From a virus (taxonomy: Duplodnaviria > Heunggongvirae > Uroviricota > Caudoviricetes): a stretch of 16,771 bases of DNA. This document shows positions 1 to 16,600 of the stretch, one piece after another; the stretch's first letter is position 1, and each line of letters opens with the position of its first letter. The notes under the pieces were generated by a model. It had not been told where the DNA came from, searched no databases, and saw nothing but the letters and a program-made list of their open reading frames with translations. The DNA is taken from positions 1 through 16,771 of the IMG/VR virus record IMGVR_UViG_2698536372_000015; one strand, 5' to 3'. Both the position numbers and the translations under genes were made by a program.

Positions 1-66
1 GATACAGGCAGTGTGCTGTTCAATTGCCTCGATCATCTCTTCACGGGTGACTAATGACGTTCTCAT
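1..66 (-). CDS. 5'-partial CDS of unknown function (N-terminus only; continues beyond window start)
   Basis: ATG at 66-64 on the minus strand preceded by a strong Shine-Dalgarno (AGGAGGG); reads MRTSLVTREEMIEAIEQHTACI and runs off the window. The ATG overlaps the TGA stop of the upstream ORF 63..455 as ATGA. Confidence 0.35.
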   Translation of the reverse strand, partial: MRTSLVTREEMIEAIEQHTACI

Positions 67-455
67 AGTCCCTCCTGAGCAGAAGCGTTAACAGGGAGGC
101 ACCAGTAACTGAGAGAATTGCGTGAATCAGTGGAAAAACGGGCAGAGAAAATACAGGGAGCATCCGGAAGCTGAGAACGTGCCTCATCTTCTGTCGGTGC
201 AATAACGAAGTGATAGTGGCGTTTCTGGCAGGAGTAAAAGCGCCAGATAAATTCAGGGCGTGCGCAAGGATTGGCATTAACCATAGTTACGGCCTCATTC
301 GTAGGTTTAACAACCTGCGACCCGCTGTCAAACAGGTGGCAGGACGTGACAGGGTTGACAGACTGGCACGAATGAAACCAGCAGGCCGAAGCCTCCCCAT
401 CACGCCCCACCATAATTCGGGCGTAACGCGGTTTACGGACACAAAAATACCGCAA
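63..455 (-). CDS. hypothetical protein; start uncertain (TTG at 455, or ATG at 284 with a GAGG SD)
   Basis: Open frame whose TGA stop overlaps the start of the next minus-strand gene (ATGA), and whose 3' end encodes that gene's SD. No recognisable motif; composition not strongly protein-like. Confidence 0.3.
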   Translation of the reverse strand: MRYFCVRKPRYARIMVGRDGEASACWFHSCQSVNPVTSCHLFDSGSQVVKPTNEAVTMVNANPCARPEFIWRFYSCQKRHYHFVIAPTEDEARSQLPDAPCIFSARFSTDSRNSLSYWCLPVNASAQEGL

Positions 456-585
456 TATCGGAAATCTGCGGTTGTCCGCATTCGTATTCAGGCTGTCAAA
501 CCTGGTCGCAGAATTTGCTACGACGGTGGAACTATAAGCCTGAACGACGATGAGATCAATAGAGCCGTGTTCGATGGTAGGTTAT

Positions 586-616
586 TTGCTCTAATAAATC
601 AAATTTATTAGAGCAA
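586..616. promoter_or_regulatory. perfect 14-bp inverted repeat (TTGCTCTAATAAAT / ATTTATTAGAGCAA, 3-bp spacer); candidate phage late-promoter or activator site
   Basis: Read directly from the sequence. Each arm matches the motif at 1561-1580. No flanking T-tract, so unlikely to be an intrinsic terminator. Confidence 0.4.
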
Positions 617-627
617 TAATGGTTAAA

Positions 628-879
628 TCATCTTCGCCTGCGTGCCATATATTTGCGCACCGCGCGGCGTGGACAATCTGAAGCGGTTTCTTTCTGCTGC
701 ATCAATCTCGCAGCCATGCTCAAAAAAGTCAGGCACAGCCGAAGCCCGGCATACAATAGCGGTTCCAGTGGCCACGTCTCATTGAGCACATATACCGCCA
801 TGAAAATCGAGTCGAAAACTATCGCCGCCAGCGATAACTTCATTGTCGAAAGTCGGCGGAGCTGCCGGAGTTTATTCAT
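628..879 (-). CDS. small hypothetical membrane protein, translationally coupled to the endolysin gene
   Basis: ATG at 879-877 overlaps the end of the endolysin gene (ATGAATAA). The 83-aa product has a hydrophobic segment (LSLAAIVFDSIFMAVYVL) and a basic C-terminus. No family recognised. Confidence 0.3.
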   Translation of the reverse strand: MNKLRQLRRLSTMKLSLAAIVFDSIFMAVYVLNETWPLEPLLYAGLRLCLTFLSMAARLMQQKETASDCPRRAVRKYMARRRR

Positions 880-1429
880 TGACCAGTCCCGTCAGGCAAA
901 GCTGGCGTTCTTTTTCACGGCGAATCTTTAAACCTCGCAGGGGCACGCCGTTACTGTTCACGAAATCAGGGAGATGGTTACACATATTCACCCATTCCCC
1001 TTTCTGCGCCCACTTGTGGATGGACGTTTCTACTCGCATGCCTCGCGCTTTGCTGTAGTAGGTCCGTAAGCTATTGCATCCCATATTGAATGCCGCGCTT
1101 GTCATTGCACTGAAGGCATTATCGGGCATGTCTTTGCCCCGGAAGTGCTGATTAATACAGCGTTCAGCGATCAGGATATTCTTTTCCCAATCAGCGGCGA
1201 TTTGCTGGTCGGTTTTTCGCACACCCGGCGTTACCCCGTGTGTATTACCGATCCCGTCAGTCCATACCCCCGCAGGGCACATGTATGGATCACGTCGGCA
1301 ACCTTCAGCGTTACCAATCAGCTCAAGCCCCGCCTGGTTGGTTCGCACATTGCCATTACCCATCACGATGGTAATCATCACCGCGATAGCGCAAATTGCA
1401 CCGCCTCCTGCGGCTGTTTTTCCCTTCAT
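872..1429 (-). CDS. lyz: SAR (signal-anchor-release) endolysin, glycoside hydrolase family 24 lysozyme, P1 Lyz-like
   Basis: 185-aa product from the ATG at 1429 (GAGG SD 7 nt upstream). N-terminal Gly/Ala-rich weakly hydrophobic SAR segment (TAAGGGAICAIAVMITIVMG) with Cys13, then Glu42, Cys44 and Cys51 in EGCRRDPYMCPAG, then lysozyme core motifs (GVWTDGIGNTHGV, REKERQLCLTGL). This layout matches what I recall of phage P1 Lyz. The longer ORF-track start at 1528 is rejected. Confidence 0.92.
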   Translation of the reverse strand: MKGKTAAGGGAICAIAVMITIVMGNGNVRTNQAGLELIGNAEGCRRDPYMCPAGVWTDGIGNTHGVTPGVRKTDQQIAADWEKNILIAERCINQHFRGKDMPDNAFSAMTSAAFNMGCNSLRTYYSKARGMRVETSIHKWAQKGEWVNMCNHLPDFVNSNGVPLRGLKIRREKERQLCLTGLVNE

Positions 1430-1560
1430 AAAGACCTCATAAGCGAATTTTTTACGCTCCAGGACAAACACCCATTCACAGCCAATACCGACTGACTCGA
1501 TCCCTTTAGAAGGCACAGGATAATGCAAATCACTTGTTAGCTACGTTTCAAAGATATACA

Positions 1561-1580
1561 TTATTGCTCTAATTAATTTG
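1561..1580. promoter_or_regulatory. third copy of the TTGCTCTAAT[A/T]AAT motif in the lyz-ssb divergent intergenic region; candidate late-promoter element
   Basis: TTATTGCTCTAATTAATTTG matches the reverse complement of 601-620 (19 of 20 positions). Lies between the divergent lyz and ssb starts. Direction of action not determinable from sequence alone. Confidence 0.35.
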
Positions 1581-1598
1581 TTTTATTGGGTAAGAAAA

Positions 1599-2087
1599 GT
1601 GGCACAACGCGGTGTAAACAAAGTCATCCTGATTGGTACCCTGGGGCAAGACCCGGAGATCAGGTATATACCAAATGGCGTCGCGGTCGGAAGACTCAGC
1701 ATCGCAACGAATGAATCATGGCGCGACAAGCAAACGGGCCAACAGAAAGAGCAAACAGAATGGCATAAAGTCGTTTTGTTCGGAAAACTTGCTGAAATTG
1801 CGAGTGAGTATTTACGAAAAGGTTCTCAGGTCTACATCGAAGGGAAACTTAAAACCCGTAAGTGGACAGATGACGCCGGTGTAGAACGTTACACGACGGA
1901 AATTATCGTCAGCCAGGGCGGCACCATGCAAATGATCGGCGCTCGTCGCGACGATTCACAGTCCACAAATGGCTGGGGGCAATCAAACCAACCTCAAAAC
2001 CACCAGCAATACAGCGGTGGTAGCAAACCTCAGAGCAGCGCCAATAACGAACCTCCAATGGACTTTGAAGACGATATTCCGTTTTAG
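1599..2087 (+). CDS. ssb: single-stranded DNA-binding protein (SSB)
   Basis: OB-fold SSB sequence closely resembling E. coli SSB ([50 protein letters not shown]), Gly/Gln-rich linker and the canonical acidic tail [11 protein letters not shown]. Likely GTG start at 1599; the ORF-track start at 1578 is a TTG inside the upstream motif. Confidence 0.93.
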
Positions 2088-2092
2088 AGTTT

Positions 2093-2275
2093 ATGAGTAA
2101 AAAACGACTGAAAGAAAAGCGGTGGTCCAAACGCCAACAAAAGCACGAACTCGCTAAAAAACGCCAAAGTTGGCAATGGAACGCGTTTTTAACGAACAGA
2201 ACACCCCGAGATATTGCTTTCGCTGGTGGGAAAACATTCCTGACCCACCTGAAGGCGCAATACATCAGTTTTTAA
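2093..2275 (+). CDS. possible small basic (Lys/Arg-rich) protein; may be a spurious ORF
   Basis: ATG 6 nt after the ssb stop; 60 aa, highly basic N-terminus (MSKKRLKEKRWSKRQQKHELAKKRQ). Overlaps the long-start version of the next ORF; weak SD. Confidence 0.2.
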   Translation: MSKKRLKEKRWSKRQQKHELAKKRQSWQWNAFLTNRTPRDIAFAGGKTFLTHLKAQYISF

Positions 2276-2289
2276 GCAGAGAAAAGACT

Positions 2290-3078
2290 ATGGCAGCACA
2301 AAATACTAAAACAATTCAATACCGCCTGCGTAATGGCCAGAGTGTCGAAGTGACCATCAATAATGATGGTGTACCTGGCGAAAAGGTTTCTATCTCCGAT
2401 CTGGCTATCGAAAAAACCATCATGTGCCACCTTGGCTTTACTGAAGAAGTGAGCAAAAAGCATGGTGTAGCAATCTGGAGCGCAATGGATACTGGTATGC
2501 GCAAATTCATTACTGCTCGTACCCCAGGGATGACCATGATGGACCTCATGCAGATTGCGCCGCTGTTTGAATGTGAGCCTTTAGATGTATTCAGCAATCC
2601 AGCTATCTGCCAGCAGTTATATGGTGAGGTGAAACTCGCGGTTACCCCCATTGTGCTGCATGAAGGATCGCTTGCTGGCGTGTGGAAAGTGGAGCGTATT
2701 TCAAGCTACATGCCTTTCCATGTCAACGGCGTAATCACTGGTGAAAATCAACCTGTTTCCGTTATAAAGTCAGACCTCAAGCGCGCAATTCTTGAAGCAA
2801 GTTGTCGAGTTATCGGCCTAGGCAAACAGTCTTATGTTTCCTTCCCGGCTGGCCCTGAAGGCCCGGCAGAAATTCTGATTATGGATGCCGATCTGCTCTG
2901 GCAAATACAGTTTCTAATTGGCAAAAGCATCATCCGAGCTGAAGAGCTCGATCAGTACATTACCTGCACGATGACGGATGAAGTCAAAAGTGTGGCTATA
3001 GCCAATGCCAGGAACCTATGTCGTGCTACATTGGCAGAACCGCAAGAAAACATTCCAGAAGAAACAGAAAGTGACTAA
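2290..3078 (+). CDS. hypothetical protein (262 aa from ATG 2290; alternative longer start at 2170 gives 302 aa)
   Basis: Long open frame with protein-like composition directly downstream of ssb; no motif recognised. Start choice is uncertain. Confidence 0.6.
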   Translation: MAAQNTKTIQYRLRNGQSVEVTINNDGVPGEKVSISDLAIEKTIMCHLGFTEEVSKKHGVAIWSAMDTGMRKFITARTPGMTMMDLMQIAPLFECEPLDVFSNPAICQQLYGEVKLAVTPIVLHEGSLAGVWKVERISSYMPFHVNGVITGENQPVSVIKSDLKRAILEASCRVIGLGKQSYVSFPAGPEGPAEILIMDADLLWQIQFLIGKSIIRAEELDQYITCTMTDEVKSVAIANARNLCRATLAEPQENIPEETESD

Positions 3079-3275
3079 TAAAAACCCCGTCAGTTGGCGG
3101 GGAACTCCACGTTAAATGACCAATTATTATGTTAGCTAGCAGTTAAAGCGCCTAGTCATTATCTCTTAAAGAAGTCTTTTTAACTTATCTAAATTAGTGA
3201 CACCTCCCGTTTTGCTTGCTATGGTATGCATTCATAAACCTATTCATTAATCTATTCACAACAGTAATTAAAACT

Positions 3276-4580
3276 ATGGCTACACATGCAACAACAATCC
3301 GTAGCTTGCTCAATCAAGGGCCTATGACACCAAGACAATTGGTTGAAAAACTCAGTGTTAGCCAACCAACGATATCTAGAGCATTAAGAGAACTTGGTGA
3401 TGAAATCGTTAGGATCGGAAATGGAAGATCTATTCAATATGCTTTACGAGACTCTTTTAGAGGATTCGAATCAGTCCCCATTTATCGTATAACTGAAGAG
3501 GGGTGTATTTGCGTTCTTGGTACTCTCATTCCGGTGAGGCCAGAAGGCTATGTTATGGTTGAGGATGGGAAAAATAACAGGCATAGCGATGGGTTACCTT
3601 GGTGGTTATTTGATATGCGTCCACAAGGCTTCCTTGGAAGAGCATATGCATCAGCATATGCTCTTGAACTTAACCTTCCCTCAAATCCAGAGCAATGGTC
3701 AGATACTGATGTGATCAAAGCCTTACTTAAGCATGGGCATGATGTTGTTGGTAATTTGTTAATTGGAGAGCAAGCGCGCACGCATTTTTTAGAGATGCAG
3801 CCTCCTGTTCCTGTTAATCGTGAAATTGAATATCCTGTATTAGCTTTAGCCGCTGGTGAAGGTGATGTGCCAGGTTCATCTGCTGGAGGTGAACAACCCA
3901 AATTTTGTACTTTCACAGAGCGTGGACATGTATTAGTGAAATTCTCTGCGCCTAACGACACCCCTATAAGTGAGCGCTGGAGAGATCTCTTGTTTGCTGA
4001 ACATCTCGCATTAAAAGTTCTGGGGGTAGAAACAGAAGTTTTTGATTATAACGGTCAGAGATTCTTGGAAATTCCCCGATTTGATCGTGTTGGTCAACTC
4101 GGTCGGGTAGGTGTATTCTCACTTCGTGCACTTGATGCAGAATTTGTTGGTAATGCAAGAGCAACATGGCCCTTGCTGGTTAAAGAGTTGGTAAAAAATA
4201 AGTGCGTCCATCCTGATGCGATTATTATAGCAACAAGGCTATGGTCTTTTGGTGTGCTAATAGGCAATACCGATATGCATAATGGCAACCTATCGTTTAT
4301 TAGTAGCCACGGACGCCCATATCATATTGCTCCAGCCTATGACATGTTACCTATGGGTTTTGCCCCACGCTCTGGGGGAGCAATGTCTAATGAGCTTAGA
4401 AAAACAGCACTACCAGACTTTGTAAGTCGAAAAATATGGGATGAATCTCTTGAATTAGCTGAAAAATTTTATGCATTGGCCTGTGAGGCCGACAAATTCT
4501 CAGCTAACTTTACTCCATGTTTAGAAGCACTACGCATCCACCTAGATGATTGTAAAATACGCATAGCCCGCCTGGCATAA
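3276..4580 (+). CDS. HipA-like Ser/Thr kinase with N-terminal helix-turn-helix domain (YjjJ/HipH-like architecture)
   Basis: N-terminal HTH (MTPRQLVEKLSVSQPTISRALRELG). HipA-type motifs: P-loop-like SSAGGEQPKF, catalytic GNTDMHNGNLSF, Mg-binding APAYDMLPMGF. Visibly more AT-rich than flanking genes. Start taken at ATG 3276 (MATHATT...) rather than the ORF-track 3216. Confidence 0.85.
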   Translation: MATHATTIRSLLNQGPMTPRQLVEKLSVSQPTISRALRELGDEIVRIGNGRSIQYALRDSFRGFESVPIYRITEEGCICVLGTLIPVRPEGYVMVEDGKNNRHSDGLPWWLFDMRPQGFLGRAYASAYALELNLPSNPEQWSDTDVIKALLKHGHDVVGNLLIGEQARTHFLEMQPPVPVNREIEYPVLALAAGEGDVPGSSAGGEQPKFCTFTERGHVLVKFSAPNDTPISERWRDLLFAEHLALKVLGVETEVFDYNGQRFLEIPRFDRVGQLGRVGVFSLRALDAEFVGNARATWPLLVKELVKNKCVHPDAIIIATRLWSFGVLIGNTDMHNGNLSFISSHGRPYHIAPAYDMLPMGFAPRSGGAMSNELRKTALPDFVSRKIWDESLELAEKFYALACEADKFSANFTPCLEALRIHLDDCKIRIARLA

Positions 4581-4583
4581 ACA

Positions 4584-4611
4584 AGAAATCCCGCCAATCG
4601 GCGGGATTTCT
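4584..4611. terminator. bidirectional hairpin terminator between convergent genes
   Basis: Perfect 12-bp stem AGAAATCCCGCC / GGCGGGATTTCT with 4-nt loop, 4 nt after the kinase stop and abutting the stop of the minus-strand acidic gene. Confidence 0.6.
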
Positions 4612-4920
4612 TCAATATACGATCTGGTCTACATGATCACCAAAATCATCGTCGTCGTCCTCATCGCCACCCTCTACTGCTGGCCAATCAACAAACCAGC
4701 CAGCGTAAAGATGCAGCGTTCGGAGAACATCACTTGCGGGAGCATCAAGGGTGTTAACGAATCCCATATAGCTATTGGGATTTGCCCCAGCTATGGCTTC
4801 AGCGATCATGTCCTCGGTAATGTCACCGGAGATAATGCTTAAACGCCCGGAAACTTCTTCATTATCATCAAATTCGATAATGGCATCTCCGCCTAATGGC
4901 GCTGCGATTTTAATCTGCAT
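4612..4920 (-). CDS. small highly acidic protein, translationally coupled downstream of the large minus-strand gene
   Basis: ATG at 4920 lies 8 nt upstream of the large gene's stop, with a strong SD (AAGGAG) inside that gene's 3' end. 102 aa, very acidic, C-terminal DEDDDDDFGD run. Confidence 0.6.
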   Translation of the reverse strand: MQIKIAAPLGGDAIIEFDDNEEVSGRLSIISGDITEDMIAEAIAGANPNSYMGFVNTLDAPASDVLRTLHLYAGWFVDWPAVEGGDEDDDDDFGDHVDQIVY

Positions 4921-7897
4921 TATTTAGCTCCTTTGCCACACCTAATAACAGTTCCAGCAATCCGTCACCATTCATCAGTGATGCGGCAGCGGCCTCTTTA
5001 TCATGATACAACTGAAGAGCCATAGAGAATACTTCCGTTGCTGACGTTTTGGAAATAGTCGGTGATTTCTGCCGAATTTTCCCGGTGTTACTTACTGAGG
5101 CTGGCGGGTATACCTTCGCCATATAAATATTACTCAATCGAGATCTGAAGCACCATTCAGGCTTGCCACGCCCACCGATATTGACGAAAGATGGCTTATC
5201 CCCTTCAACATTGGCCTTCAGGAATGACCGGGCTTTCTCTAACAAACCAGGGTTACTGTACTCAAGATGATGACCCAGCTCGTGCCACAGTGCGCTCGCA
5301 TTTTCATCGTTCAAATTGACAGCAACAACACCATTTAGATTTGCATATGCCCTTCCCTGGTGGTGAACTACCTTTGATAAGGTCGATATTTTCCCGCCGG
5401 TCAGGCGATAAATATCAGCAAGTTCCTTGCGCAGGTCTATCCCACCATTCTGTCCAGCGCGGGCTTCTTCCACTTCTTCTGTGATAAAAGAGTCGGCCCA
5501 CTCAAGAGCTTTTTCTTCAGATACGGATGAGTTTGCGATCGCACTGTTCATGGCAGATAACACTTTCTCGTGGACCGAACCCATACTTCGCTGATTCATT
5601 TGCCAGCGTGTCTGCGGGTTATATGAGAATCGCTTAAGTAGTTGGTCAAGCTGCTCAAGTTCTTCTTCACTGACATACTTTTTAGCCTCACCAATAATGC
5701 CAGGGAGAATATTGCCGTTAGGATTAAACGCTCGCGAAAGGAAGAGTTTCAGCGCCCCCATGCCCTCCGATGCTTCAATATCACCAATAACCCGGTTAAC
5801 AATGGCCGCACTCTTCGGATTAGCATCCGCCAACGCTCTGGCTACGATTTGCAGGGACGATACGACCTCACGCTGCATATCAGTCCTGATCTCATCAATA
5901 AACTCTGGCGTTATGCCGTGCTCTTTAAGGATATCCCGGCCTTCCGCCGTTACCCCATCGATATCACCGACATGTTTATTAACACGACTTTGCAATGCCT
6001 TAAATGCCTTCAGAATTCCACGGGCATCATCCGCTTTACTAACGGCCTTCCTGAATGCTGGCAAGAAGTCTGAGTTAACCTCATTTTGTTGATCGGCCCA
6101 CTGAATGGAGGCTTCCTTCATCTCGTCCAGAGTCAGATCACCCAACGCGGTATGGTCTGTGAATATGAGCGATAACCTCTGAACCATTTCTGCCAATGGT
6201 GATGCCGAATGCGCCGCGCTAAGGAATGCTTTCACCCTGGTTGGGCGAATGGAAAACCAGTCAATAGCTGGTGGCATATCTCCGTTTTTTATCGCCTGCG
6301 CTATCTCGTCAAAGCCATCGCGCCCAAGGGAGGATGCGTGATTTAACAAGCCGCGAAGTAACGAATTGCTGATACCGAATAATCGGCACCATTTTTTCAC
6401 GTCGGCAACAGGCATTCGAACAAAATGCGCAAGCACTTGAACAAGCTGTTCATCCTGGGGATCTGTACGGGAAAGCAGCCTGATCAGATGAATAATGTCT
6501 TTGATGCCGGATGCCCGATGTAATAGCAAGCTGGTATATGGAGCAACACCGTTGTAACTACCGCCAGAAGCTGACTCGAAAAGACCGCCAGATATCCCTT
6601 GCATACCTTCGTTTTCCAGTTCCTGAGATACCTGGCGAAGGATATCCTGTAACGACACATCGCCGCCGCCAAACATATCCCCGAGCGCCTGGCCCTGGTG
6701 CTGTAACTCATCATTGATACGTTGCGCCATCAACTTAAAGGCGGTGGCCATACGCTTCGCGCTACGGTTATTCGCGACGATGAACAACGCGAGTGCTTTC
6801 ACTTCCGGGGCCATTTCGCTGAACATATCCCCCTGAGCAATAACATCGGTAATATGCTGGCCTGACTCCTTCGATTGCCTTACCAGGTCTACCGCATCTT
6901 TCAATGCCGCCAGCGCCTTTTTATCGAGGCTATCCGCTGTCTCAATGCCATCAACAATAGTTGTCACAGCCTGCTTGTGCGCTTCTCCTGATAAAGCCTG
7001 CATCTGGACAAAATCATTGGCTGCCGCATTAAGCGCCGTCAGAACATTACGCATATCCGGATCAGGTTCTTCTGCAACCATCCTTACCAGGCGCGCATCC
7101 TTATATGCCTTGGCAAAGATCGCGTTTTGTATACGGTCTACAAGTTGCCGTGTTGGTCGCCCATCTTCAGTTACAAGGCCAGCCGCCTGTGTGGCACCAA
7201 CTTGCGTCATAAATCCGCGAATAAACGCGTCATTACTGCGGCTAAGCAGATCTCCGCTTTCTGACGGATTAAACAGCGCCATCATCGCCGGTGTTATGCT
7301 GTCGGCATCAACAAAAGCCTTTTCACTGGCTGCCATTTCCTGAAGATCAGAAATATTTGAGTCCTTGGCAAACTGAACGCGGTCAACCTTCGTTAACCGG
7401 CGGCGCACCAGTACCGGAGCCGTCATTGATTCAACCTTTTCAGTACGTATGCCGAATTCGGTCGCATGTTCAATCAGGTACTCCCGATACCGATCCGCAT
7501 TACCGTCCTGATAGGCTTTAATGATCCCCATGGTACGTCCATTACCTGACTCAACTGCATTGTCCTCACCAATTATCGGTGCGCCATGGCTGGATAATCC
7601 GGAATCGGTAAGCTGAGCAGGCCGCAAATCTTTGGATATCTGGTTAACCTGAAGAAGGCTGGATGCGCGGGTCCGGTCGCGCGGCTGAAGTTCCTGGGGA
7701 TAGTCAGGATTAATTTTCCCATCCAGAGTATTGGATACCAAAATAGCTGAGGCATCGACGATATCAAACGCTGTTTTTACCTCGTCTCCCTTCGCTGTCA
7801 CCACATACGAAACCCGCCCATAATCGGGCAGGTTCTTTAGCAGCTCGATCAGCGTTTCTATGCTGGTGGCCATTACCACCTGATCGCTTAAGCTCAT
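4910..7897 (-). CDS. large (995 aa) phage protein with an HExxH zinc-metallopeptidase-like motif; possibly an internal virion or antirestriction-type protein (position suggests P1 DdrB, unverified)
   Basis: Uninterrupted 2988-nt frame with protein-like composition. HELGHH encoded at 5284..5267 near the C-terminus. No other motif recognised; the DdrB assignment is from recalled P1 gene order only. Confidence 0.85.
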   Translation of the reverse strand: MSLSDQVVMATSIETLIELLKNLPDYGRVSYVVTAKGDEVKTAFDIVDASAILVSNTLDGKINPDYPQELQPRDRTRASSLLQVNQISKDLRPAQLTDSGLSSHGAPIIGEDNAVESGNGRTMGIIKAYQDGNADRYREYLIEHATEFGIRTEKVESMTAPVLVRRRLTKVDRVQFAKDSNISDLQEMAASEKAFVDADSITPAMMALFNPSESGDLLSRSNDAFIRGFMTQVGATQAAGLVTEDGRPTRQLVDRIQNAIFAKAYKDARLVRMVAEEPDPDMRNVLTALNAAANDFVQMQALSGEAHKQAVTTIVDGIETADSLDKKALAALKDAVDLVRQSKESGQHITDVIAQGDMFSEMAPEVKALALFIVANNRSAKRMATAFKLMAQRINDELQHQGQALGDMFGGGDVSLQDILRQVSQELENEGMQGISGGLFESASGGSYNGVAPYTSLLLHRASGIKDIIHLIRLLSRTDPQDEQLVQVLAHFVRMPVADVKKWCRLFGISNSLLRGLLNHASSLGRDGFDEIAQAIKNGDMPPAIDWFSIRPTRVKAFLSAAHSASPLAEMVQRLSLIFTDHTALGDLTLDEMKEASIQWADQQNEVNSDFLPAFRKAVSKADDARGILKAFKALQSRVNKHVGDIDGVTAEGRDILKEHGITPEFIDEIRTDMQREVVSSLQIVARALADANPKSAAIVNRVIGDIEASEGMGALKLFLSRAFNPNGNILPGIIGEAKKYVSEEELEQLDQLLKRFSYNPQTRWQMNQRSMGSVHEKVLSAMNSAIANSSVSEEKALEWADSFITEEVEEARAGQNGGIDLRKELADIYRLTGGKISTLSKVVHHQGRAYANLNGVVAVNLNDENASALWHELGHHLEYSNPGLLEKARSFLKANVEGDKPSFVNIGGRGKPEWCFRSRLSNIYMAKVYPPASVSNTGKIRQKSPTISKTSATEVFSMALQLYHDKEAAAASLMNGDGLLELLLGVAKELNNAD

Positions 7898-7996
7898 CCC
7901 TGTTACGCCTTATCCAATGTGCCGCCCCCTACGCTCCTCATAGTGGGGATATAAGGCACAGTTTTCCTCCCGGCTATTTTTGCTTAAAATAGTGAC

Positions 7997-9943
7997 ATGA
8001 AACAACAGGTGTCATTCAAATTCCGGTTAAAACCAGATGGTCAACAGGAGCGTCAAATGAGGCGCTTTGCCGGAGCTTGTCGTTTCGTTTTCAACCGTGC
8101 TCTGGCGCTTCAGAATGAGAATCATGAGGCCGGTAAAAAATACATCCCTTACACGAAAATGGCTTCCTGGTTGGTTGAGTGGAAAAAAGACACTGAAACC
8201 GAATGGCTTAAAGATTCTCCCTCACAGCCATTGCAACAGTCACTGAAAGACCTTGAGCGGGCTTACAAAAACTTCTTCCAGAATCGGGCAGCTTTTCCCC
8301 GATTCAAAAAGCGGGGACAGAATGATGCATTCCGCTACCCGCAGGGTGTTAAGCTCGATCAGGAGAACAGCCGTATTTTTCTGCCGAAACTGGGCTGGAT
8401 GCGCTACCGGAATAGCCGTCAGGTCACGGGTGTTGTGAAAAATGTCACTGTCAGCCAGTCCTGCGGTAAGTGGTACATCAGTATTCAGACAGAAAGAGAG
8501 GTATCCACTCCTGTTCACCCTTCTGCATCAATGGTCGGACTGGATGCTGGTGTGGCTAAACTCGCCACGCTGTCAGATGGCACAGTCTTTGAACCTGTAA
8601 ATAGTTTTCAGAAAAACCAGAAGAAGCTGGCGAGACTTCAGCGACAGTTAAGCCGCAAGGTCAAATTCAGCAACAACTGGCAGAAGCAGAAACGCAAAAT
8701 ACAGCGACTGCATTCCCGTATCGCAAATATCCGCAGGGACTACCTTCATAAAGTCACAACGACCGTCAGCAAAAACCACGCAATGATAGTCATTGAGGAT
8801 TTGAAGGTCAGCAACATGTCAAAGTCAGCAGCGGGTACGGTCAGCCAGCCGGGGCGCAATGTCCGGGCAAAATCAGGTTTAAACCGTTCGATACTGGATC
8901 AGGGCTGGTATGAAATGCGCCGCCAGCTTGAGTACAAGCAGCTCTGGCGTGGCGGTCAGGTGCTTGCTGTTCCGCCAGCGTACACAAGCCAGCGTTGCGC
9001 GTGCTGTGGTCATACAGCGAANNNNNNNGCTTTTCCCCGATTCAAAAAGCGGGGACAGAATGATGCATTCCGCTACCCGCAGGGTGTTAAGCTCGATCAG
9101 GAGAACAGCCGTATTTTTCTGCCGAAACTGGGCTGGATGCGCTACCGGAATAGCCGTCAGGTCACGGGTGTTGTGAAAAATGTCACTGTCAGCCAGTCCT
9201 GCGGTAAGTGGTACATCAGTATTCAGACAGAAAGAGAGGTATCCACTCCTGTTCACCCTTCTGCATCAATGGTCGGACTGGATGCTGGTGTGGCTAAACT
9301 CGCCACGCTGTCAGATGGCACAGTCTTTGAACCTGTAAATAGTTTTCAGAAAAACCAGAAGAAGCTGGCGAGACTTCAGCGACAGTTAAGCCGCAAGGTC
9401 AAATTCAGCAACAACTGGCAGAAGCAGAAACGCAAAATACAGCGACTGCATTTTCGTATCGCAAATATCCGCAGAGACTACCTTCATAAAGTCACAACGA
9501 TCATCAGCAAAAACCACGCAATGATTGTCATTGAGGATTTGAAGGTTAAAAACATGGCAAAGTCAGCAGCGGGTACGGTCAGCCAGCCGGGGCGCAATGT
9601 CTGGACAAAATCAGGTTTAAACCGTTCGATACTGGATCAGGGCTGGTATGAAATGCGCCGCCAGCTTGAGTATAAGCAGCTCTGGCATGGCGGTCAGGTA
9701 CTGGCAGTGCCGCCAGCGTACACAAGCCAGCGTTGCGCGTGCTGTGGTCATACCGCGAAAGAAAATCGCCTGTCACAAAGTAAATTCAGATGCCAGGTAT
9801 GTGGATATACAGCGAACGCCGATGTAAACGGCGCTCGTAACATTTTAGCGGCGGGGCACGCCGTTCTTGCCTGTGGAGGGATGGTGCAGTCAGGCCGCCC
9901 GTTGAAGCAGGAACCAACCGAAATGATTCAGGCGATAGCCTGA
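7997..9943 (+). CDS. tnpB: IS605-family TnpB (OrfB) RNA-guided nuclease; assembled ORF artefactually lengthened by an in-frame 738-nt duplication across a 7-N gap (true length about 402 aa)
   Basis: RuvC-I GLDAG, RuvC-II VIEDL, zinc finger CACCGH...CQVCGY, Ruv[14 protein letters not shown]. Blocks 8291-9021 and 9029-9759 are near-identical and separated by NNNNNNN; the offset is 738 nt, so the frame is kept and the translation shows XXX. Confidence 0.85.
8291..9021. repeat. first copy of duplicated 731-bp tnpB segment, ending at the assembly gap
   Basis: Identical to 9029-9452 over the first 424 bp, then roughly 15-20 substitutions by eye up to the gap. Confidence 0.8.
9029..9759. repeat. 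second copy of duplicated tnpB segment, contiguous with the tnpB 3' end
   Basis: Begins immediately after the N run at 9022-9028 and continues into the C-terminal zinc-finger region. Confidence 0.8.
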
Positions 9944-10004
9944 ACGTAGCAGGAATCCACGCCCGTCAGGGTGCGGAGGATGTCAAAAGGCAGGTGAGGT
10001 TATA

Positions 10005-10136
10005 ATGAGAAAACTATTACTACCGTTATTATTTATGGCCGGGACTGTTAATGCAGCATCAAGCGTGAAGGAGATTTGTACCGATTATACGAAATACCTT
10101 GGGCACGTTTACGCCTTTGCGATCAATGACTATTAA
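10005..10136 (+). CDS. small exported peptide (43 aa, predicted signal peptide)
   Basis: ATG with a good SD (GGTGAGG); N-terminal signal-peptide-like MRKLLLPLLFMAGTVNA; mature part about 26 aa with one Cys. Below the ORF-track length cut-off; found by reading. Confidence 0.4.
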   Translation: MRKLLLPLLFMAGTVNAASSVKEICTDYTKYLGHVYAFAINDY

Positions 10137-10157
10137 TCCATGCGTAGGAGTGGATTT

Positions 10158-10475
10158 ATGCTGATTCGTTTGTTTTTAGTGCTTTCCTTTTTAACATTTA
10201 ATGTTTTTGCTGATGAAGTTGACTTTTCGAAGGTAGATTGCAATTCAGTGGAAACAAGAAAAGCTCTTATTGAAGAATATAACGAAATATTATCGTCATA
10301 TGGAATAACAGTGGTTGATTCTTATAATCAAAAAACTATTCAGAAAGGAATAAATAAACTGGTTTGTTATGGGGTTTACCAATATTCAGATGGCTCTTCG
10401 GAGTATGTTATTTATAAAGCATACCCAAATAGTCTTGGTGAATTGATTAGTGAGTTTAAACCGATTAATGAGTGA
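10158..10475 (+). CDS. small exported protein (105 aa, cleavable signal peptide, two Cys)
   Basis: ATG at 10158 with SD AGGAG. Signal peptide MLIRLFLVLSFLTFNVFA followed by an acidic mature start. Very AT-rich coding sequence. Confidence 0.6.
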   Translation: MLIRLFLVLSFLTFNVFADEVDFSKVDCNSVETRKALIEEYNEILSSYGITVVDSYNQKTIQKGINKLVCYGVYQYSDGSSEYVIYKAYPNSLGELISEFKPINE

Positions 10476-10482
10476 ATGGAAA

Positions 10483-11262
10483 ATGAAATTATTTAATGTA
10501 ATAACATTTTGTTGTGCTATTTTTGCTGGAAGCGCGATAGCTGATAATAAATTGCCAGATTGGCTTTCTACTTCAAAAAAAGATTATGATTTAGTAAGGG
10601 TGTTCTATTTGTCTGGATTTGCCTCGAAAGCAATGAATAATCAATTTGGTTATCATTTTCCATCTGAGTTGGTTAATGATTTTAAAGATAATGAATTTGC
10701 CGCTCAGGAAAAATGGAATAAAATTTCAATTGTATATGGTGAAATAAAATCCATAAGAATGGTGAATAATGAACCAATTGTAGAGTTATTTACTCCAGGG
10801 GAAAATGCAACGCCACTAAATTATATCAAATTGAAAGTGTTGGATTCAAAACAAAACTCTCTGTTAAAACTAAAAAAAGGGGATGATATATATGCAGTGT
10901 GCTCCGGTGCTAATTTTAGTTTAGTGCCAATTCTGAGCAACTGCACTCCAGCAACTGACGTCATTGATGCTGCACTCTCTTTTTCTGGTGAATATATGTT
11001 CCCTGCTTTTGATTCTTTTTCACCTACTAAGCAAAACGTCAAATATATATTCACAAATCAAGATCCTGTTCAGATGATGAATTTTATAGGGTACCTATCC
11101 TTAGTCGATACAACGAAGGATAAGAATAAAATGGATATGGTTCGTAAGTGTACGCCTTGGAAGCCGGAATGTTCACAACAATTCGTTGATGTAATGGAAG
11201 GATTTGATAACATCATGTATAAATATGAGAGGGAATTTAAAAATTACATAGAATTAAAATAG
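10483..11262 (+). CDS. exported protein (259 aa, signal peptide, several Cys), unknown function
   Basis: ATG at 10483 is 8 nt after the upstream stop. Signal peptide MKLFNVITFCCAIFAGSAIA with a likely signal peptidase I site (no clear lipobox). Very AT-rich. Confidence 0.65.
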   Translation: MKLFNVITFCCAIFAGSAIADNKLPDWLSTSKKDYDLVRVFYLSGFASKAMNNQFGYHFPSELVNDFKDNEFAAQEKWNKISIVYGEIKSIRMVNNEPIVELFTPGENATPLNYIKLKVLDSKQNSLLKLKKGDDIYAVCSGANFSLVPILSNCTPATDVIDAALSFSGEYMFPAFDSFSPTKQNVKYIFTNQDPVQMMNFIGYLSLVDTTKDKNKMDMVRKCTPWKPECSQQFVDVMEGFDNIMYKYEREFKNYIELK

Positions 11263-11294
11263 TATTTGAAATGATAGTCAATTTAAGTTTTAAC

Positions 11295-11326
11295 AAAACG
11301 CCCATTAAAGGGCGTTTTATTGTTTT
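11295..11326 (+). terminator. rho-independent terminator of the exported-protein operon
   Basis: Stem AAAACGCCC / GGGCGTTTT with loop ATTAAA, followed by a T-rich run (ATTGTTTT). Confidence 0.7.
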
Positions 11327-11430
11327 ACTCAAAACAATCTGATTATGTGATAACCATATCATATTCCTCATTCCACCTACACTGATTACCCCCCAGACAA
11401 CAACATTCCTACTCAATGAACAAATGACTA

Positions 11431-12038
<608 letters not shown>

Positions 12039-12048
12039 GGGGGCTGAT

Positions 12049-12660
12049 ATGGGGCTTAATGTTGCTTCAGTAAAGTCTTATGTATCTTCGGCATTAACGA
12101 CGACATTATTTGGCTCCGGCGTTGGTGAGCGGGAAGTTGGTAAGCTGACGTCAATCATCATGAACAAAATGCTGTTCGCGCAAGGATGGCAGTTCTCTGT
12201 CGAAGTTGATGGTCTGGAGGGGGCAGACTTCTTTGCCAAAGACATTACCTACCACGATTACAGCATCGAATATGAAACGATTAAAATAGGCGGAGGGAAT
12301 ATCCTTCAGCCAACGGAGCGTTCGCCTGGGCAGATAACAATGATGGTCAGGGATACCGTTGATGGCCTCGTTTTGGACTGGTTTAAGACGGCAAAAGGTC
12401 GGGTGATCAATCCGGACGGTACCGGGAATATACCGTCTAAATATTTGCTCAATGTGCGTATTTATCGGTTGCTGTCCTCCGGTTTAACCAAACTGGAAAA
12501 TGAGATGACGGTATTCCCGGTCACTACCGGCGATGTCACCTATGCGCGGGATCAGGTTACGGAATTTAAGTCATTCCCAATGACCTTCGCATTGCACAGC
12601 ACGTTTAACCAATCCTCAAGTTCTTTAGCTTCCCTTCTGGGCTTTAGTTTTTCTCTTTGA
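12049..12660 (+). CDS. hypothetical phage structural protein, 203 aa
   Basis: SD GAGGGGG 7 nt upstream; starts 10 nt after the previous stop. No motif recognised. Confidence 0.7.
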   Translation: MGLNVASVKSYVSSALTTTLFGSGVGEREVGKLTSIIMNKMLFAQGWQFSVEVDGLEGADFFAKDITYHDYSIEYETIKIGGGNILQPTERSPGQITMMVRDTVDGLVLDWFKTAKGRVINPDGTGNIPSKYLLNVRIYRLLSSGLTKLENEMTVFPVTTGDVTYARDQVTEFKSFPMTFALHSTFNQSSSSLASLLGFSFSL

Positions 12661-12674
12661 ATTAAGGAGCAAGG

Positions 12675-13556
12675 ATGCTTTTACCTCTTTTCCCGCTACC
12701 ATCGCGGCCAACTGAATTGATCCAGTTCCGTCAGCCAAATATTGCTGATGCGATGCGTTTCAACTCGATAACACCGGAGGAACAAGAACAACAGACAACG
12801 GCGTATTTAAAAGCCTTGCTGGCTGAACCCGCGAAATATGATCCCCTGACATGGACGGCGCAGGACCGGATTACCGCGTTATGGTGGATATTTACTGGCT
12901 CCCGTGAAACACCGGTCGAGACATTCACCTACACCTGTAAACATTGCGGTAAAGAGCATTATTACGATTGCGATATGAATGCTCTGGCTGAAGATATCCA
13001 GGTCCTGGAAGTGGAACCGTTCATTGACGATATTGAGGTGTCTGTAGAGGGCGTGCCTTATCAATGGCGTATCGTGCCGCTTGATGGTTGGGCAATGGAA
13101 ATGCTGGAGATGCGCCGTGCAGCATTGCCACCTGAAGACGACGCGGAATTCAAAGAAGCGATCGTTGATTTGCGTTTTTGGGAATTCGCTTATCAGTGTG
13201 AACTTTATAACGATGTTAGCGGTACTCGTGAAGAGCAGGCTGAGCGTCGTTATGAAACGATCAAACGGATGGCCATTGATACTGAATTTATGAAGCTGGC
13301 GGCACACATCCGACTGGCTCATGAAAAGCTCGAACATGGTTTACCGTGCTACATCGATAAAGGCGAAATGCGTCTTCGTCTCCCGCCGCACAAATGCCCA
13401 AACCAGGATAAAAAGGAGTCCACAGAGGGTGCGTATACCCGTCTGTGGGTGCCCTTTCGGGCTACCGACTTCATTCCACAGGTGGGGATTGAAAAGCTAT
13501 CAGACCTTAGTGTCCAACCTGGTTTTGTATGGGGGTATACCGATTCAGGACGCTGA
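12675..13556 (+). CDS. hypothetical phage structural or assembly protein with Cys cluster (possible zinc ribbon), 293 aa
   Basis: SD AAGGAG. Cys cluster CKHCGKEHYYDCD plus distal Cys residues. Position directly before the tape-measure-like gene. Confidence 0.7.
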   Translation: MLLPLFPLPSRPTELIQFRQPNIADAMRFNSITPEEQEQQTTAYLKALLAEPAKYDPLTWTAQDRITALWWIFTGSRETPVETFTYTCKHCGKEHYYDCDMNALAEDIQVLEVEPFIDDIEVSVEGVPYQWRIVPLDGWAMEMLEMRRAALPPEDDAEFKEAIVDLRFWEFAYQCELYNDVSGTREEQAERRYETIKRMAIDTEFMKLAAHIRLAHEKLEHGLPCYIDKGEMRLRLPPHKCPNQDKKESTEGAYTRLWVPFRATDFIPQVGIEKLSDLSVQPGFVWGYTDSGR

Positions 13557-13637
13557 AAGGCTCACTGAATCCTATGCGTTTTTCCTGTTGGAGAAACTGG
13601 AAGAAAAACTTAAACCGAAGCGGTAGGCGATAAGATC

Positions 13638-16600
13638 ATGGAAAGAAAAAACGCCAACATTGACGATGTGATAAGGACGGTTGAAACCGCCAGCGCAAAA
13701 GAGCTGGAAGAGCTTGCAGGTATTCGGGAAGCTGTTGAAGATTTGAAAGGGGGGCGAGTTGCTACTGTTGATCCTGTCTCTCGCAGCGTGTCGGCATTAA
13801 ATCGCACAATCGAAAATTCCCGGCCTGACTTTGTGGCCAAAGCGCCATCCGTAGACCCTATTGTTGACGCAATGAAACGGCTTAATTTAGGGGACGTTTC
13901 TCGTGTAGTTCAGGAAGATGTTGCTCAACAGGAACAGCGGGCCAAATCAACCACACAAAAGGGTAAAAAACGACGCAGGAAGGCTATACCAGAGGATGTA
14001 AAGGCACAACGGACCGAAGCAGCCGAACACGCTCGCGAAATGTTCGGTCAAAAAGGCGGTGCGCAAAAAAGCCAAAACCAACGCGATGCGCGTGGTCGTT
14101 TTATTGGAAAGTCAGGGAGTAAGGCCGCAGCGGAAGATGCCCGTGCTGAACGAGCAGAAAAGGCCAGGCGAAAAGAGGATGATGAGCGTCTAAATGCTGA
14201 ATCAGGTTTATTAAAAAAACTGTCAAAAGTAGCTGAAGGCATAGGTAACCCTTCAGAGACTCGTGCCGTCGATGCGTTAGGTTACGCCGTTGCTGGTCCA
14301 TTGTGGGCAGCAGGGAAGGAGCTTGGCGGGATATCAAAAGAAGTTGGTGGATCGCTTAATGGTGCCAGAAAGTCTATTGCCGATGTGATTCGTGGCAATG
14401 ACGATAACAGCCGTAGAAAAGGTTTTTTTAGGCGTAAATCGCAAAATAGTGCCGATGTCGTTCAGGTTAACACCCAAAAACGGACGGTTCAGGAACTTCA
14501 GGAGCAGACCAGCGAAATTAAAGAGGGCAATGACAAGATTCTCCGTGCCCTTGATCAGATAGCCAAAAACACCGGTAAAAAGAAGGGCGGCTTGCTGTCC
14601 AAACTATTTAGCCTGTTAGGGAAGGGGGCCGGTGGCGTCGCGTCGTTGTTAATGGGGCGTGGCATGCTGAAAAAAGCTGGAGCACTCGCTTTTGGCGCTC
14701 TGGGGGCAAAGAAACTTGTAGGAATGCTACGCGGTGGTGGCAAGAAGACTCTCGCTCATGAAGGCGGAGATTTGGCTGCCCGGGCAGCAGGTAAACTTGG
14801 ATTAAAGGCAGTTGGTAAAGGGGCGTTACGCGCAATTCCCCTAGTCGGCACAGTGGCTGGAGGTATTTATGGTGCGGTAACCGGTTGGAATGATACAGAA
14901 GCGCAACGTCGAGCGTTTGGGCTTAAATCAGGACAAGATCCATCATTCCAGCAAAAAGCCGCTTATACGTTAGCTAATGTTCTTGATATGGGGGGACTGG
15001 TATCTGGTATTAGCAGCGCCATTGGTGAGGTTCTCAAATCACTTGGATTTGAGGATATCGGCAATATGTTGCAATCATTTTCGACGGAAAGTATTGCCCA
15101 GGCCATTGATAGTGGGATTACCAACTTAGAAACATATATTTCTAATCTTGGCGACACCATTTCTACCAAGTTCGATGATTATACAGCAAAGATTGGTGAT
15201 GCTATTTCTGCATGGTTCAGTGACACCACAAAGAATCTGAACGAAAAATTAGACGCCATCAAAAACTTCTTTACTGTCGATAACCTGAAACAGGTTTTCA
15301 GTGATGCAATTGATAGTGCAATTGATTTCATTAAGAATCCTGGGAAATACATTAAAGAGGCTGGCAGTAATCTATGGAGTGCCGCAAAAGAGCTTTCAGG
15401 TGAGGTTGCAGATGCCGCTGTTCAGAGCACCCCTGTGGCCTGGGTTGCATCAAAGCTAGTCAACAAAGCGGATGCGAAAGAGGTTACACCTGAATTAAAA
15501 ACACCAGCTAAAGAAAGTCAGGAGGACAATGCTCCTAAGACTGAATATACCCCTAAAAAGGCTAATATTGTCACTCGTGTTGTAAATGCATCCCTAGATA
15601 CGGCGAAAGATAGCAATAAAACAGTTAAAGAAACTGCCAATCAGATTATCAATGCAAATGCCGTAGAAACGGGCAATCGCGCGTTGCAGAAAATTGATAA
15701 TGCTATTGGTCAAAATAGCTCATCATCATCGTCGCTTAATACTACTGGCACCAGGAATGACATTCAGAAAGCTGCGGATACCTACAACAATGGCAACTTA
15801 GATGTAAAAGTCGGAAGCCTTGGCGCTGAAGGTAAGGCAAATCTCGATAAGTTGGCTCCGTATTTTGCTGAACTAGAGAATAAATATGGCCTTCCTGAAG
15901 GTACTCTTTACGCGATCGCTGCAACTGAATCTGGTGGTGATCCTAACGCAAAATCTACGCTTACAAGATCACCAAATGGAAAGCTAAGTGGTGGCGCTCT
16001 CGGAATGTTCCAGTTTACGAGCGTTGCTCGTGAGGAAACTGGATTATCCCGGGAAGATTCTTTTAATCCGGAAAAATCGGCAGAAGCTGCGGCTCTTCTC
16101 ATGAGCAAGTATCTGAAGCAAGCCAATGGAGACTTAAACGAGGCCATCACTGCATATAACGCTGGGTTTGGCACTATCAATAAGTGGAAAAAAGGCACAG
16201 GTGACTTATCGAAAGAAAACCGTGAGTACGCGATCAAGGTCAATACTCATCGTGCTCGCTATTTAGGTGGTGAAATCTATACACCTGGAGCAGGAGCACA
16301 GGGTGGGGCGCAATATGGAGTGAGGGGACCACTGCCTGATAACGCTGTTATCGATCAGTCTACTGGCCTGGCGTTTACCCCTGGTGATAGCCCGTTTGAG
16401 AAAGGTGGTCTGGTAGACAAAATTGGCAATGCTGTTGGCGTTAACGATCTGGTCAACAAATTCATGAATGGCCGGGGTATGCGTCGGGAAGTCGTTCAGG
16501 GAACGCTCGAAGAACGTGCACGAGGGAAGGGGACCGCAACAGCAGCTGGCAATGTGTATGTTGATACTCCGATGCCAGTTGAAGAGGCACGTCCGGTGGC

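Follow-up and report, generated by a model that had tools for sequence, protein, structure and literature searches.

The IMG/VR virus record IMGVR_UViG_2698536372_000015 (Caudoviricetes), analyzed from position 1 to 16,771 (nucleotides, nt), a stretch hereafter called the window, carries a hipH/yjjJ-like gene, a relative of the toxin kinase gene hipA, at positions 3276-4580. The gene lies between two backbone genes of P1-like phage-plasmids, in an inserted cassette with its own promoter-like site. We find that a short array of ATTCA repeats precedes its start codon, and that such an array recurs upstream of HipH-like genes in Gamma- and Betaproteobacteria. The features of the locus are as follows, counted from the first letter of the window.

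2290-3078, plus strand: isaA homologue, the left-flank backbone gene (95.6% nt identity to P1 ssb-isaA up to position 3079; phrog_2326, of unknown function; no Pfam match)
3085-3102, no strand assigned: left-border hairpin CCCCG-N8-CGGGG, a minus-strand terminator-like call followed by a T-run on the minus strand and not on the plus strand
3102-4582, plus strand: inserted cassette (~1.48 kb) made up of the leader and the hipH-like gene, absent from phage SJ46 and marked by a shift in base composition
3197-3225, plus strand: predicted sigma-70-like promoter GTGACA-N17-TATGGT with a TG extension, from a consensus scan
3230-3258, plus strand: ATTCA array, a candidate operator of three cores (3230-3234, 3242-3246 and 3254-3258) with a 12-nt period
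3276-4580, plus strand: hipH/yjjJ-like gene, 434 amino acids (aa), ATG start, TAA stop at 4578-4580
3288-3455, plus strand: N-terminal winged helix-turn-helix (wHTH), residues ~5-60, Pfam HTH_5/MarR, recognition helix S29-Q-P-T-x-S-R35
3876-3905, plus strand: Gly-rich loop SSAGGEQPKF, residues 201-210, with 99% conservation among family members
4263-4298, plus strand: catalytic loop GNTDMHNGNLSF, residues 330-341, with D333, H335 and N338
4329-4352, plus strand: Mg-binding motif APAYDMLP, residues 352-359, with D356
4585-4610, no strand assigned: bidirectional terminator-like hairpin GAAATCCCGCC-AATC-GGCGGGATTTC, read from the sequence, between the stop codons of the hipH-like gene and hxr
4612-4920, minus strand: hxr, the convergent right-flank backbone gene (98-99% nt identity to P1 hxr-ddrB)

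A single-gene cassette in a variable slot of P1-like phage-plasmids

The hipH-like gene arrived by insertion into a P1-type backbone. P1, SJ46 and 813R1 are homologous to the window up to 3079-3101 and again from 4583. Salmonella phage SJ46 represents the empty site, in which isaA and hxr are 29 bp apart and share one bidirectional hairpin. The same hairpin forms the right border in 813R1 and fills the 31-nt gap between the hipH-like gene and hxr in the window. Other elements carry other occupants between isaA and hxr: IS1 and isaB in P1, an unrelated 356-aa open reading frame (ORF) in 813R1, and an ISSod13 family transposase in RCS47. The isaA-IS1-isaB segment has been described as “region 2” of P1-like phage-plasmids, which have eight such hypervariable regions of low GC (PMC9603915; PMC6906374). 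HipH-type kinase cargo is not mentioned in the P1-diversity literature that we searched, which included both of these papers. Neither the 813R1 ORF nor P1 IsaB has a Pfam or PADLOC match, so the slot cannot be called a defense hotspot.

The cassette differs from its surroundings in base composition, and the shift is real but moderate. Its GC content is 0.417 (0.429 in the ORF and 0.322 in the leader), against 0.485 and 0.493 in the two flanks; GC at third codon positions (GC3) is 0.297. With its insertion relative to an empty site, deviant composition, promoter-like site and bounding hairpins, the insert resembles the cargo of P1 region 2 and of phage morons in general, namely a transcription unit of foreign composition between two backbone genes in a known variable slot. 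We thus read it as a 1.48-kb single-gene cassette with the predicted anatomy of a moron, its promoter included. The hairpins that bound it are both GC-rich, and the left one (3085-3102) is a diverged look-alike of the right one (4585-4610). This hints that cargo is exchanged at the slot by recombination at or beside the terminator hairpin.

The gene is solitary. No HipB-like gene lies on either side of 3276-4580, and no ORF in the 174-bp leader exceeds 39 aa. We considered and rejected a small antitoxin encoded there, as the only candidates are 21-39 aa long, overlapping or antisense, and unsupported. Hxr was also considered as a HipB-like antitoxin, given that P1 annotation calls it a “homolog of Xre.” It was rejected: Pfam finds no helix-turn-helix (HTH) domain in it, BLASTP does not align it with HipB, and it belongs to the backbone with or without the cassette. 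An initial annotation, made from the letters of the window alone, had described the gene as AT-rich cargo with no adjacent antitoxin, at a site where P1-type elements carry variable genes. Comparison with P1-like genomes bears out each of these points. The same annotation placed the gene next to ssb; it is indeed close to ssb (1599-2087), although isaA stands between the two.

The cassette recurs on P1-like plasmids, mostly of E. coli. We find it at 97-100% nt identity in 31 PLSDB plasmids, 30 of them from E. coli and nearly all non-mobilizable and 90-100 kb long, and in 26 of 5,426 complete E. coli genomes. The gene bears the RefSeq/PGAP label yjjJ in about 30 P1-like plasmids, while one PLSDB row lacks the feature. 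The hxr-ddrB backbone itself is present in 488 plasmids, about 30 of which (~6%) carry the cassette. There are two plasmid alleles, separated by 15 synonymous and 10 non-synonymous differences (ratio of non-synonymous to synonymous polymorphism, pN/pS, 0.2), and every copy examined is intact. The exact protein of the commoner allele occurs in 1,264 assembly blocks, with the ssb-isaA and hxr-ddrB flanks in all ten places inspected. A tblastn search of 50,697 phage records returned no copy of the product. PHROGs v4 does hold a full-length family of unknown function (phrog_30447, 1028 bits), probably derived from prophage or plasmid-derived entries. A HipH-type toxin kinase is thus in circulation on P1-like phage-plasmids, elements that move between E. 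coli, Salmonella and Klebsiella, often with resistance genes.

In two cases, the P1-type segment and the cassette lie in chromosome-sized sequence: a 575-kb contig (L015; GCA_958333505.1) and NZ_CM148631.1, at about position 4.44 Mb. In the former, the segment is followed by a TnpB gene and then by OapA/LysM-domain and FKBP-domain genes foreign to the P1 backbone. Either an integrated P1-like element or a misassembly would account for this placement.

The closest relatives beyond this cluster are chromosomal and have no gene context in common. They are 434-aa YjjJ proteins, 68-72% identical, from Pantoea, Enterobacter, Serratia, Gibbsiella, Dickeya and Pectobacterium. The low GC3 of the window gene points to a donor other than these GC-rich genera. 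Six chromosomal relatives lie in six unrelated neighborhoods: a cus/pco metal island, a type I restriction-modification (R-M) locus, a position between flagellar operons, a fimbrial operon, an invasin/AraC pair, and the end of a P2-type Ogr/AIPR prophage. A conserved partner gene can therefore be rejected, and the whole 434-aa subgroup is a solitary, mobile accessory gene. Two of these neighborhoods contain mobile or defense genes, with P2-type Ogr and an AIPR abortive-infection protein in Pantoea dispersa (L028) and type I hsdRSM in Gibbsiella quercinecans (L020). The four other ~70% relatives lie away from such genes, so that this does not amount to a trend. Plasmids of Aeromonas, Acidovorax and Polaromonas carry YjjJ-type genes that are more distant (36-56% identity), and matches of 60-80% are present on two Proteus plasmids. 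Carriage of HipH-type kinases on plasmids is thus not limited to P1-like elements.

Family membership and a conserved upstream array

Sequence comparison shows the gene to be a genuine, though diverged, member of the already named HipH/YjjJ stand-alone toxin kinases, and its architecture is not new. The product scores 530.6 bits against the NCBIfam equivalog model NF007297 (“type II toxin-antitoxin system HipA family toxin YjjJ”; cutoff 401), with residues 4-434 covering positions 3-446 of the 446-position profile. Pfam matches above cutoff identify HipA_C (6.4e-16, residues 201-372) and, at the N terminus, HTH_5 (6.5e-6) and MarR (8.2e-6) over residues 5-42. The alignment with E. coli K-12 HipH/YjjJ (b4385) is full-length and collinear at 35% identity (E = 2e-89). 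HipH constitutes clade X of the HipA kinases, which is monocistronic, has no linked antitoxin and bears an N-terminal HTH that possibly acts in cis (Gerdes et al. 2021, PMC8262856). The window protein combines all of these traits: an equivalog-level score, a fused N-terminal HTH, the HipA-type core motifs and a monocistronic gene.

The kinase motifs are intact. D333, H335, N338 and D356 are invariant with both HipA and K-12 HipH; D333 and D356 correspond to HipA D309 and D332 and to HipH D342 and D364. S201 and S202 of the Gly-rich loop align with the K-12 autophosphorylation sites S200 and S201, and HVLVKF (residues 218-223), in the activation-loop region, also aligns to K-12 HipH. Among 81 family members, conservation is highest in these kinase motifs (89-99%), and the predicted recognition helix SQPT.SR and the wing residues are at least 90% conserved. 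No nuclease-type domain was detected with Pfam or NCBIfam. The initial annotation had proposed an HTH-fused HipA-like kinase with three intact catalytic signatures, and the profile matches agree with it on both counts. It had also treated the solitary, HTH-bearing arrangement as unusual, which does not hold, since this is the defining architecture of HipH/YjjJ (PMC8262856) and RefSeq already names the gene yjjJ. The gene call is, in this respect, ordinary: annotation pipelines already recognize a diverged HipH/YjjJ kinase.

Structural comparison points to the same family on weaker grounds. The AlphaFold2 model is poor, with a low-diversity alignment of 33 sequences, a predicted local distance difference test score (pLDDT) of 64, a predicted template-modeling score (pTM) of 0.51 and a disordered catalytic region. 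Foldseek searches with this model (template-modeling (TM) scores ~0.3-0.4) match the core to HipA (4pu4), HipT (8ezr) and CtkA, and the N terminus to repressors of the ArsR/SmtB/AdcR/MarR type. Fold comparison would thus place the protein in the right family, and these matches carry little weight. Among solved structures, sequence searches match only HipT and HipA_C proteins, with HipT 8ezr the best (E = 1e-5).

K-12 HipH is the closest characterized counterpart of the window protein. Both have an N-terminal HTH joined to a HipA-type core of ~435-445 aa in total, both are encoded by monocistronic genes without an adjacent antitoxin, both retain all kinase motifs including the serines of the Gly-rich loop, and both pass the same equivalog model. 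In K-12, YjjJ is toxic when overexpressed and acts as a Ser/Thr kinase, autophosphorylating S200/S201; most toxicity is lost in the kinase-dead protein, mutated at D342/D364, and deletion of hipH has no growth phenotype (PMC9948734). The HTH is needed for toxicity and HipH is found at the nucleoid. Cyclic di-GMP (c-di-GMP) binds HipH with a dissociation constant (Kd) of 7.6 uM; it also increases transcription of hipH, but no longer does so with a substituted promoter (PMC11452175). Only for K-12 YjjJ are kinase activity, autophosphorylation and growth inhibition known; for the window protein they are predicted from residue conservation. The two proteins nonetheless share only 35% aa identity, and K-12 S217 is not conserved in the window protein, which belongs to a distinct 434-aa subgroup. 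The genes differ in location (a phage-plasmid versus the conserved deoD-lplA chromosomal site of K-12) and in GC3 (0.297 versus 0.547). Kinship at the DNA level with chromosomal E. coli hipH was rejected, as no match is found even at the “distant” setting.

The locus departs from the other HipA-type systems. As in hipBA, a homologous kinase core carries the catalytic and Mg-binding aspartates, DNA binding is coupled to the kinase, and operator repeats, here candidate ones, lie at the promoter. Unlike hipBA, there is no adjacent upstream hipB gene, a winged helix rather than a Cro/Xre-type HTH_3 is fused in cis, and the candidate operator consists of direct repeats with a 12-nt period, whereas HipB sites are palindromes. 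The HipA N-terminal subdomain (Couple_hipA or HipA_N) gives no Pfam match at E up to 1, and hhalign covers only HipA residues 200-335, leaving the N-terminal domain unmatched. HipBST is related through HipT, the best sequence match among solved structures, which has two regulatory serines in its Gly-rich loop (PMC8262856). In HipBST, however, hipS and hipB are separate genes that lie upstream of one for a short HipT lacking an N-terminal HTH extension, while the window locus has no hipS or hipB and encodes a single 434-aa protein with such an extension. HipAD/DS-6 likewise has a HipA-family kinase, is carried by accessory DNA and depends on the catalytic residue for its phenotype (PMC13092281), but it is a two-gene system with a DUF3037/DUF1829 partner. 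PADLOC-DB v2 yields no significant match, only marginal hits (E 5e-4 or weaker) on the HTH or on 30 residues of the catalytic loop, and we therefore reject a catalogued defense system as the identity of the gene. K-12 HipH has no PADLOC-DB v2 match either.

An ATTCA array precedes HipH-like genes throughout the family. In the window, the triple is unique, and none of 200 shuffles reproduces it. To this we add 80 loci picked by protein similarity alone (48-71% identity; Gamma- and Betaproteobacteria), which together with the window and K-12 make 82. Exact cores at 12-nt spacing within 80 nt of the start number at least two in 71 of the 80 loci and at least three in 57, whereas only two such pairs occur in the remaining 635 kb of the same loci, both strands counted. 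When one mismatch is allowed, arrays are present in all 82 loci, with two cores in 7, three in 52 and four in 23. Exact ATTCA triples occur in the fetched loci only at the pre-start position and on the coding strand; the array of K-12 hipH, also a triple, lies at positions 6738-6766 of its locus (L002). The unit consensus is approximately (T/A)ATCT-ATTCA-(T/A)N.

The geometry of the array is also fixed. In 57 of the 80 loci, exactly 5 nt separate the end of the last core from the ATG. On the other side, the first core follows the end of a TAnnnT hexamer by 4 nt in 41 of the 82 loci and by 2 nt in another 19. Every HipH-like gene examined, that of K-12 included, has this strictly conserved cis element next to its -10 element. 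The leaders of the two plasmid alleles differ at 12 of 174 positions, none of them within an ATTCA core. The array apparently has not been described before: neither operator nor ATTCA repeats are mentioned in three HipH papers (PMC8262856, PMC9948734 and PMC11452175), and a literature search for the motif gave nothing relevant.

The leader has further properties as an RNA. In most HipH-like loci, it consists of little beyond the repeat array. A known RNA family or a structured leader was rejected: the leader RNA is unstructured (folding z = 0.56) and belongs to no Rfam family, and Rfam gives only sub-threshold hits at the 4585-4610 terminator hairpin. No Shine-Dalgarno (SD)-like motif lies within 15 nt of the start in any of the 82 loci (positions 3259-3275 of the window included). 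Translation of the HipH-like toxin may therefore be intrinsically weak or unconventionally initiated.

Control and role of the cassette

We consider it likely that the cassette is a moron-type unit encoding a self-repressed kinase, with its own promoter, an ATTCA array, a single HipH-like gene and a bidirectional terminator shared with hxr. The array is probably the operator of the protein's own wHTH. Starting 4 nt past the -10 element, it spans the predicted transcription start together with the entire SD-less leader, and binding would repress transcription of the gene itself. Autorepression, the task of HipB in hipBA, would here be built into the kinase. Residual protein would be restrained by autophosphorylation of S201/S202, as proposed for HipT and HipH. 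Once repression or inhibition was lifted, the kinase would phosphorylate host proteins and stop growth and division; the known substrates in K-12 are L31/RpmE and CsrA. A repressor released by c-di-GMP would explain both the binding of c-di-GMP by HipH and the rise in hipH transcription, and the array could account for the reported effect at the hipH promoter. The initial annotation had left target and regulation open, and the family-wide, operator-like array now narrows the second of these.

Several observations weigh against this reading. Domains of the ArsR/MarR type usually bind palindromes as dimers, whereas the array, whose binding by the wHTH we infer, is made of 12-nt direct repeats. 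The last core in the window lies 17 nt from the ATG, rather than the 5 nt seen in most loci. At only 35% identity to K-12 HipH, the substrates cannot be transferred. The nature of HipH toxicity in K-12 is itself disputed, between a kinase (PMC9948734) and an HTH-dependent DNase (PMC11452175). Fold evidence from the structure model (pLDDT 64, TM about 0.4) is weak. Finally, the left hairpin lacks a plus-strand T-run, and read-through from the C1-controlled ssb-isaA unit is possible.

Two alternatives concern the mechanism. The toxicity could come from DNA damage that depends on the HTH and is inhibited by c-di-GMP, a mechanism claimed for K-12 HipH, and the kinase motifs would then be secondary. 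A HipH deletion without the catalytic motif is still toxic whereas HTH deletions are not, and purified HipH-GFP cleaves plasmid DNA, a cleavage that c-di-GMP (Kd 7.6 uM) inhibits (PMC11452175). The wHTH is conserved in the window protein as well. However, no nuclease-type domain is detected, and the kinase motifs are the best conserved parts of the protein (89-99%), which argues for selection on kinase function. The papers conflict: kinase-dead YjjJ loses most of its toxicity (PMC9948734), and the DNase claim rests on a GFP fusion. We regard DNA damage as an unlikely basis of toxicity. A more serious possibility, though still a doubtful one, is that the array is a site for some other conserved factor, or else an element of the SD-less leader that works at the RNA level or in translation. 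The array lies within the transcribed leader, and direct repeats are atypical for ArsR/MarR-type domains. In addition, A/U-rich repeats could serve translation initiation, since SD-like motifs are missing within 15 nt of the start in all 82 leaders. On the other side, the leader RNA is unstructured and without an Rfam family, and exact 5-nt cores at fixed 12-nt spacing with variable spacers resemble a protein-DNA site. Moreover, the array accompanies the gene in unrelated neighborhoods of Beta- and Gammaproteobacteria and on the phage-plasmid; this points to the protein itself, the sole factor that is the array's constant companion.

What the cassette does for the phage-plasmid is a separate matter. 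The initial annotation had proposed addiction, abortive infection or host manipulation. An anti-phage role concerns biological role rather than mechanism and is compatible with autorepression: the cassette could be a lysogen-expressed abortive-infection module, in which infection by another phage relieves repression or activates the kinase and arrests the cell. HipAD/DS-6, a HipA-family kinase system, has been experimentally validated against phage and needs its kinase residue (PMC13092281). The moron architecture, in a hypervariable slot of a temperate element near the P1 dar/ddr anti-restriction genes, fits such a role, and among the relatives, one adjoins a type I R-M system and another lies near a P2-type Ogr/AIPR prophage end. 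Yet there is no significant PADLOC match, most relatives lie in non-defense neighborhoods (metal-resistance, flagellar, fimbrial and invasin), HipH has no precedent in phage defense, and HipAD is a two-protein system with a different partner. We can propose defense only tentatively.

The remaining roles seem less probable. A neutral or nearly silent passenger, functionless for the element, would explain the patchy presence of the cassette in 6% of P1 backbones, its lack of matches in 50,697 phage records, and the K-12 hipH deletion without a growth phenotype (PMC9948734). Such a passenger is improbable, however, given the pN/pS of 0.2 between alleles, the intact frame in every copy examined, the conservation of the regulatory cores between alleles, and a commoner allele found in 1,264 assembly blocks and in the same place in the ten inspected. 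Plasmid addiction, in which the cassette would stabilize the phage-plasmid by post-segregational killing, is the least likely of the proposed roles and in our view very unlikely. HipA-family kinases do belong to type II toxin-antitoxin systems, and overexpressed YjjJ is toxic. But there is no separate labile antitoxin and hence nothing that would decay faster than the toxin after plasmid loss, phd-doc already serves P1 elements (PMC9603915), only about 30 of 488 P1 backbones (~6%) carry the cassette, and the close relatives are chromosomal single genes.

Self-repression and defense can be joined in a broader proposal, which we offer as speculation. HipH kinases might be one-gene toxin-repressor switches, their wHTH seated on an ATTCA array and released by a signal (c-di-GMP in K-12), and P1-like elements might have captured one as a lysogen-expressed arrest module against superinfection or stress. 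If true, this would settle the question, posed in the literature, of how HipH is regulated, and a HipH-type kinase would join the known defense or conversion cargo of phage-plasmids.

Other features of the window

Further along the window, there are signs of additional cargo and of rearrangement. The region at ~10000-11400 is an AT-rich island with a GC content of 0.33, far below that of the hipH cassette, and is probably another cargo cassette. Two plus-strand ORFs lie within it, at 10140-10475 (111 aa, phrog_14329) and 10450-11262 (270 aa, phrog_14355), neither of which has a PADLOC match or known function; the second has a weak match to the tRNA_anti-like oligonucleotide-binding (OB) fold.

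A TnpB element precedes this island. The plus-strand ORF at 7997-9943 encodes 648 aa with two TnpB/IS605-OrfB family matches. Compared with the 403-aa TnpB of NZ_CP058684, it repeats ~730 bp of the gene in tandem, and positions 9029-9985 of the window re-align to positions 14212-15168 of the fetched locus L001. The repeat could be either a real internal duplication or an assembly artifact. Past the TnpB element, positions 9987-16771 correspond to the lytic transglycosylase/sit side of P1, whereas ddrA-darA follows in P1 and NZ_CP058684. This junction is common only to one Salmonella plasmid and one E. albertii plasmid, which suggests an insertion sequence (IS)-associated rearrangement of the backbone.

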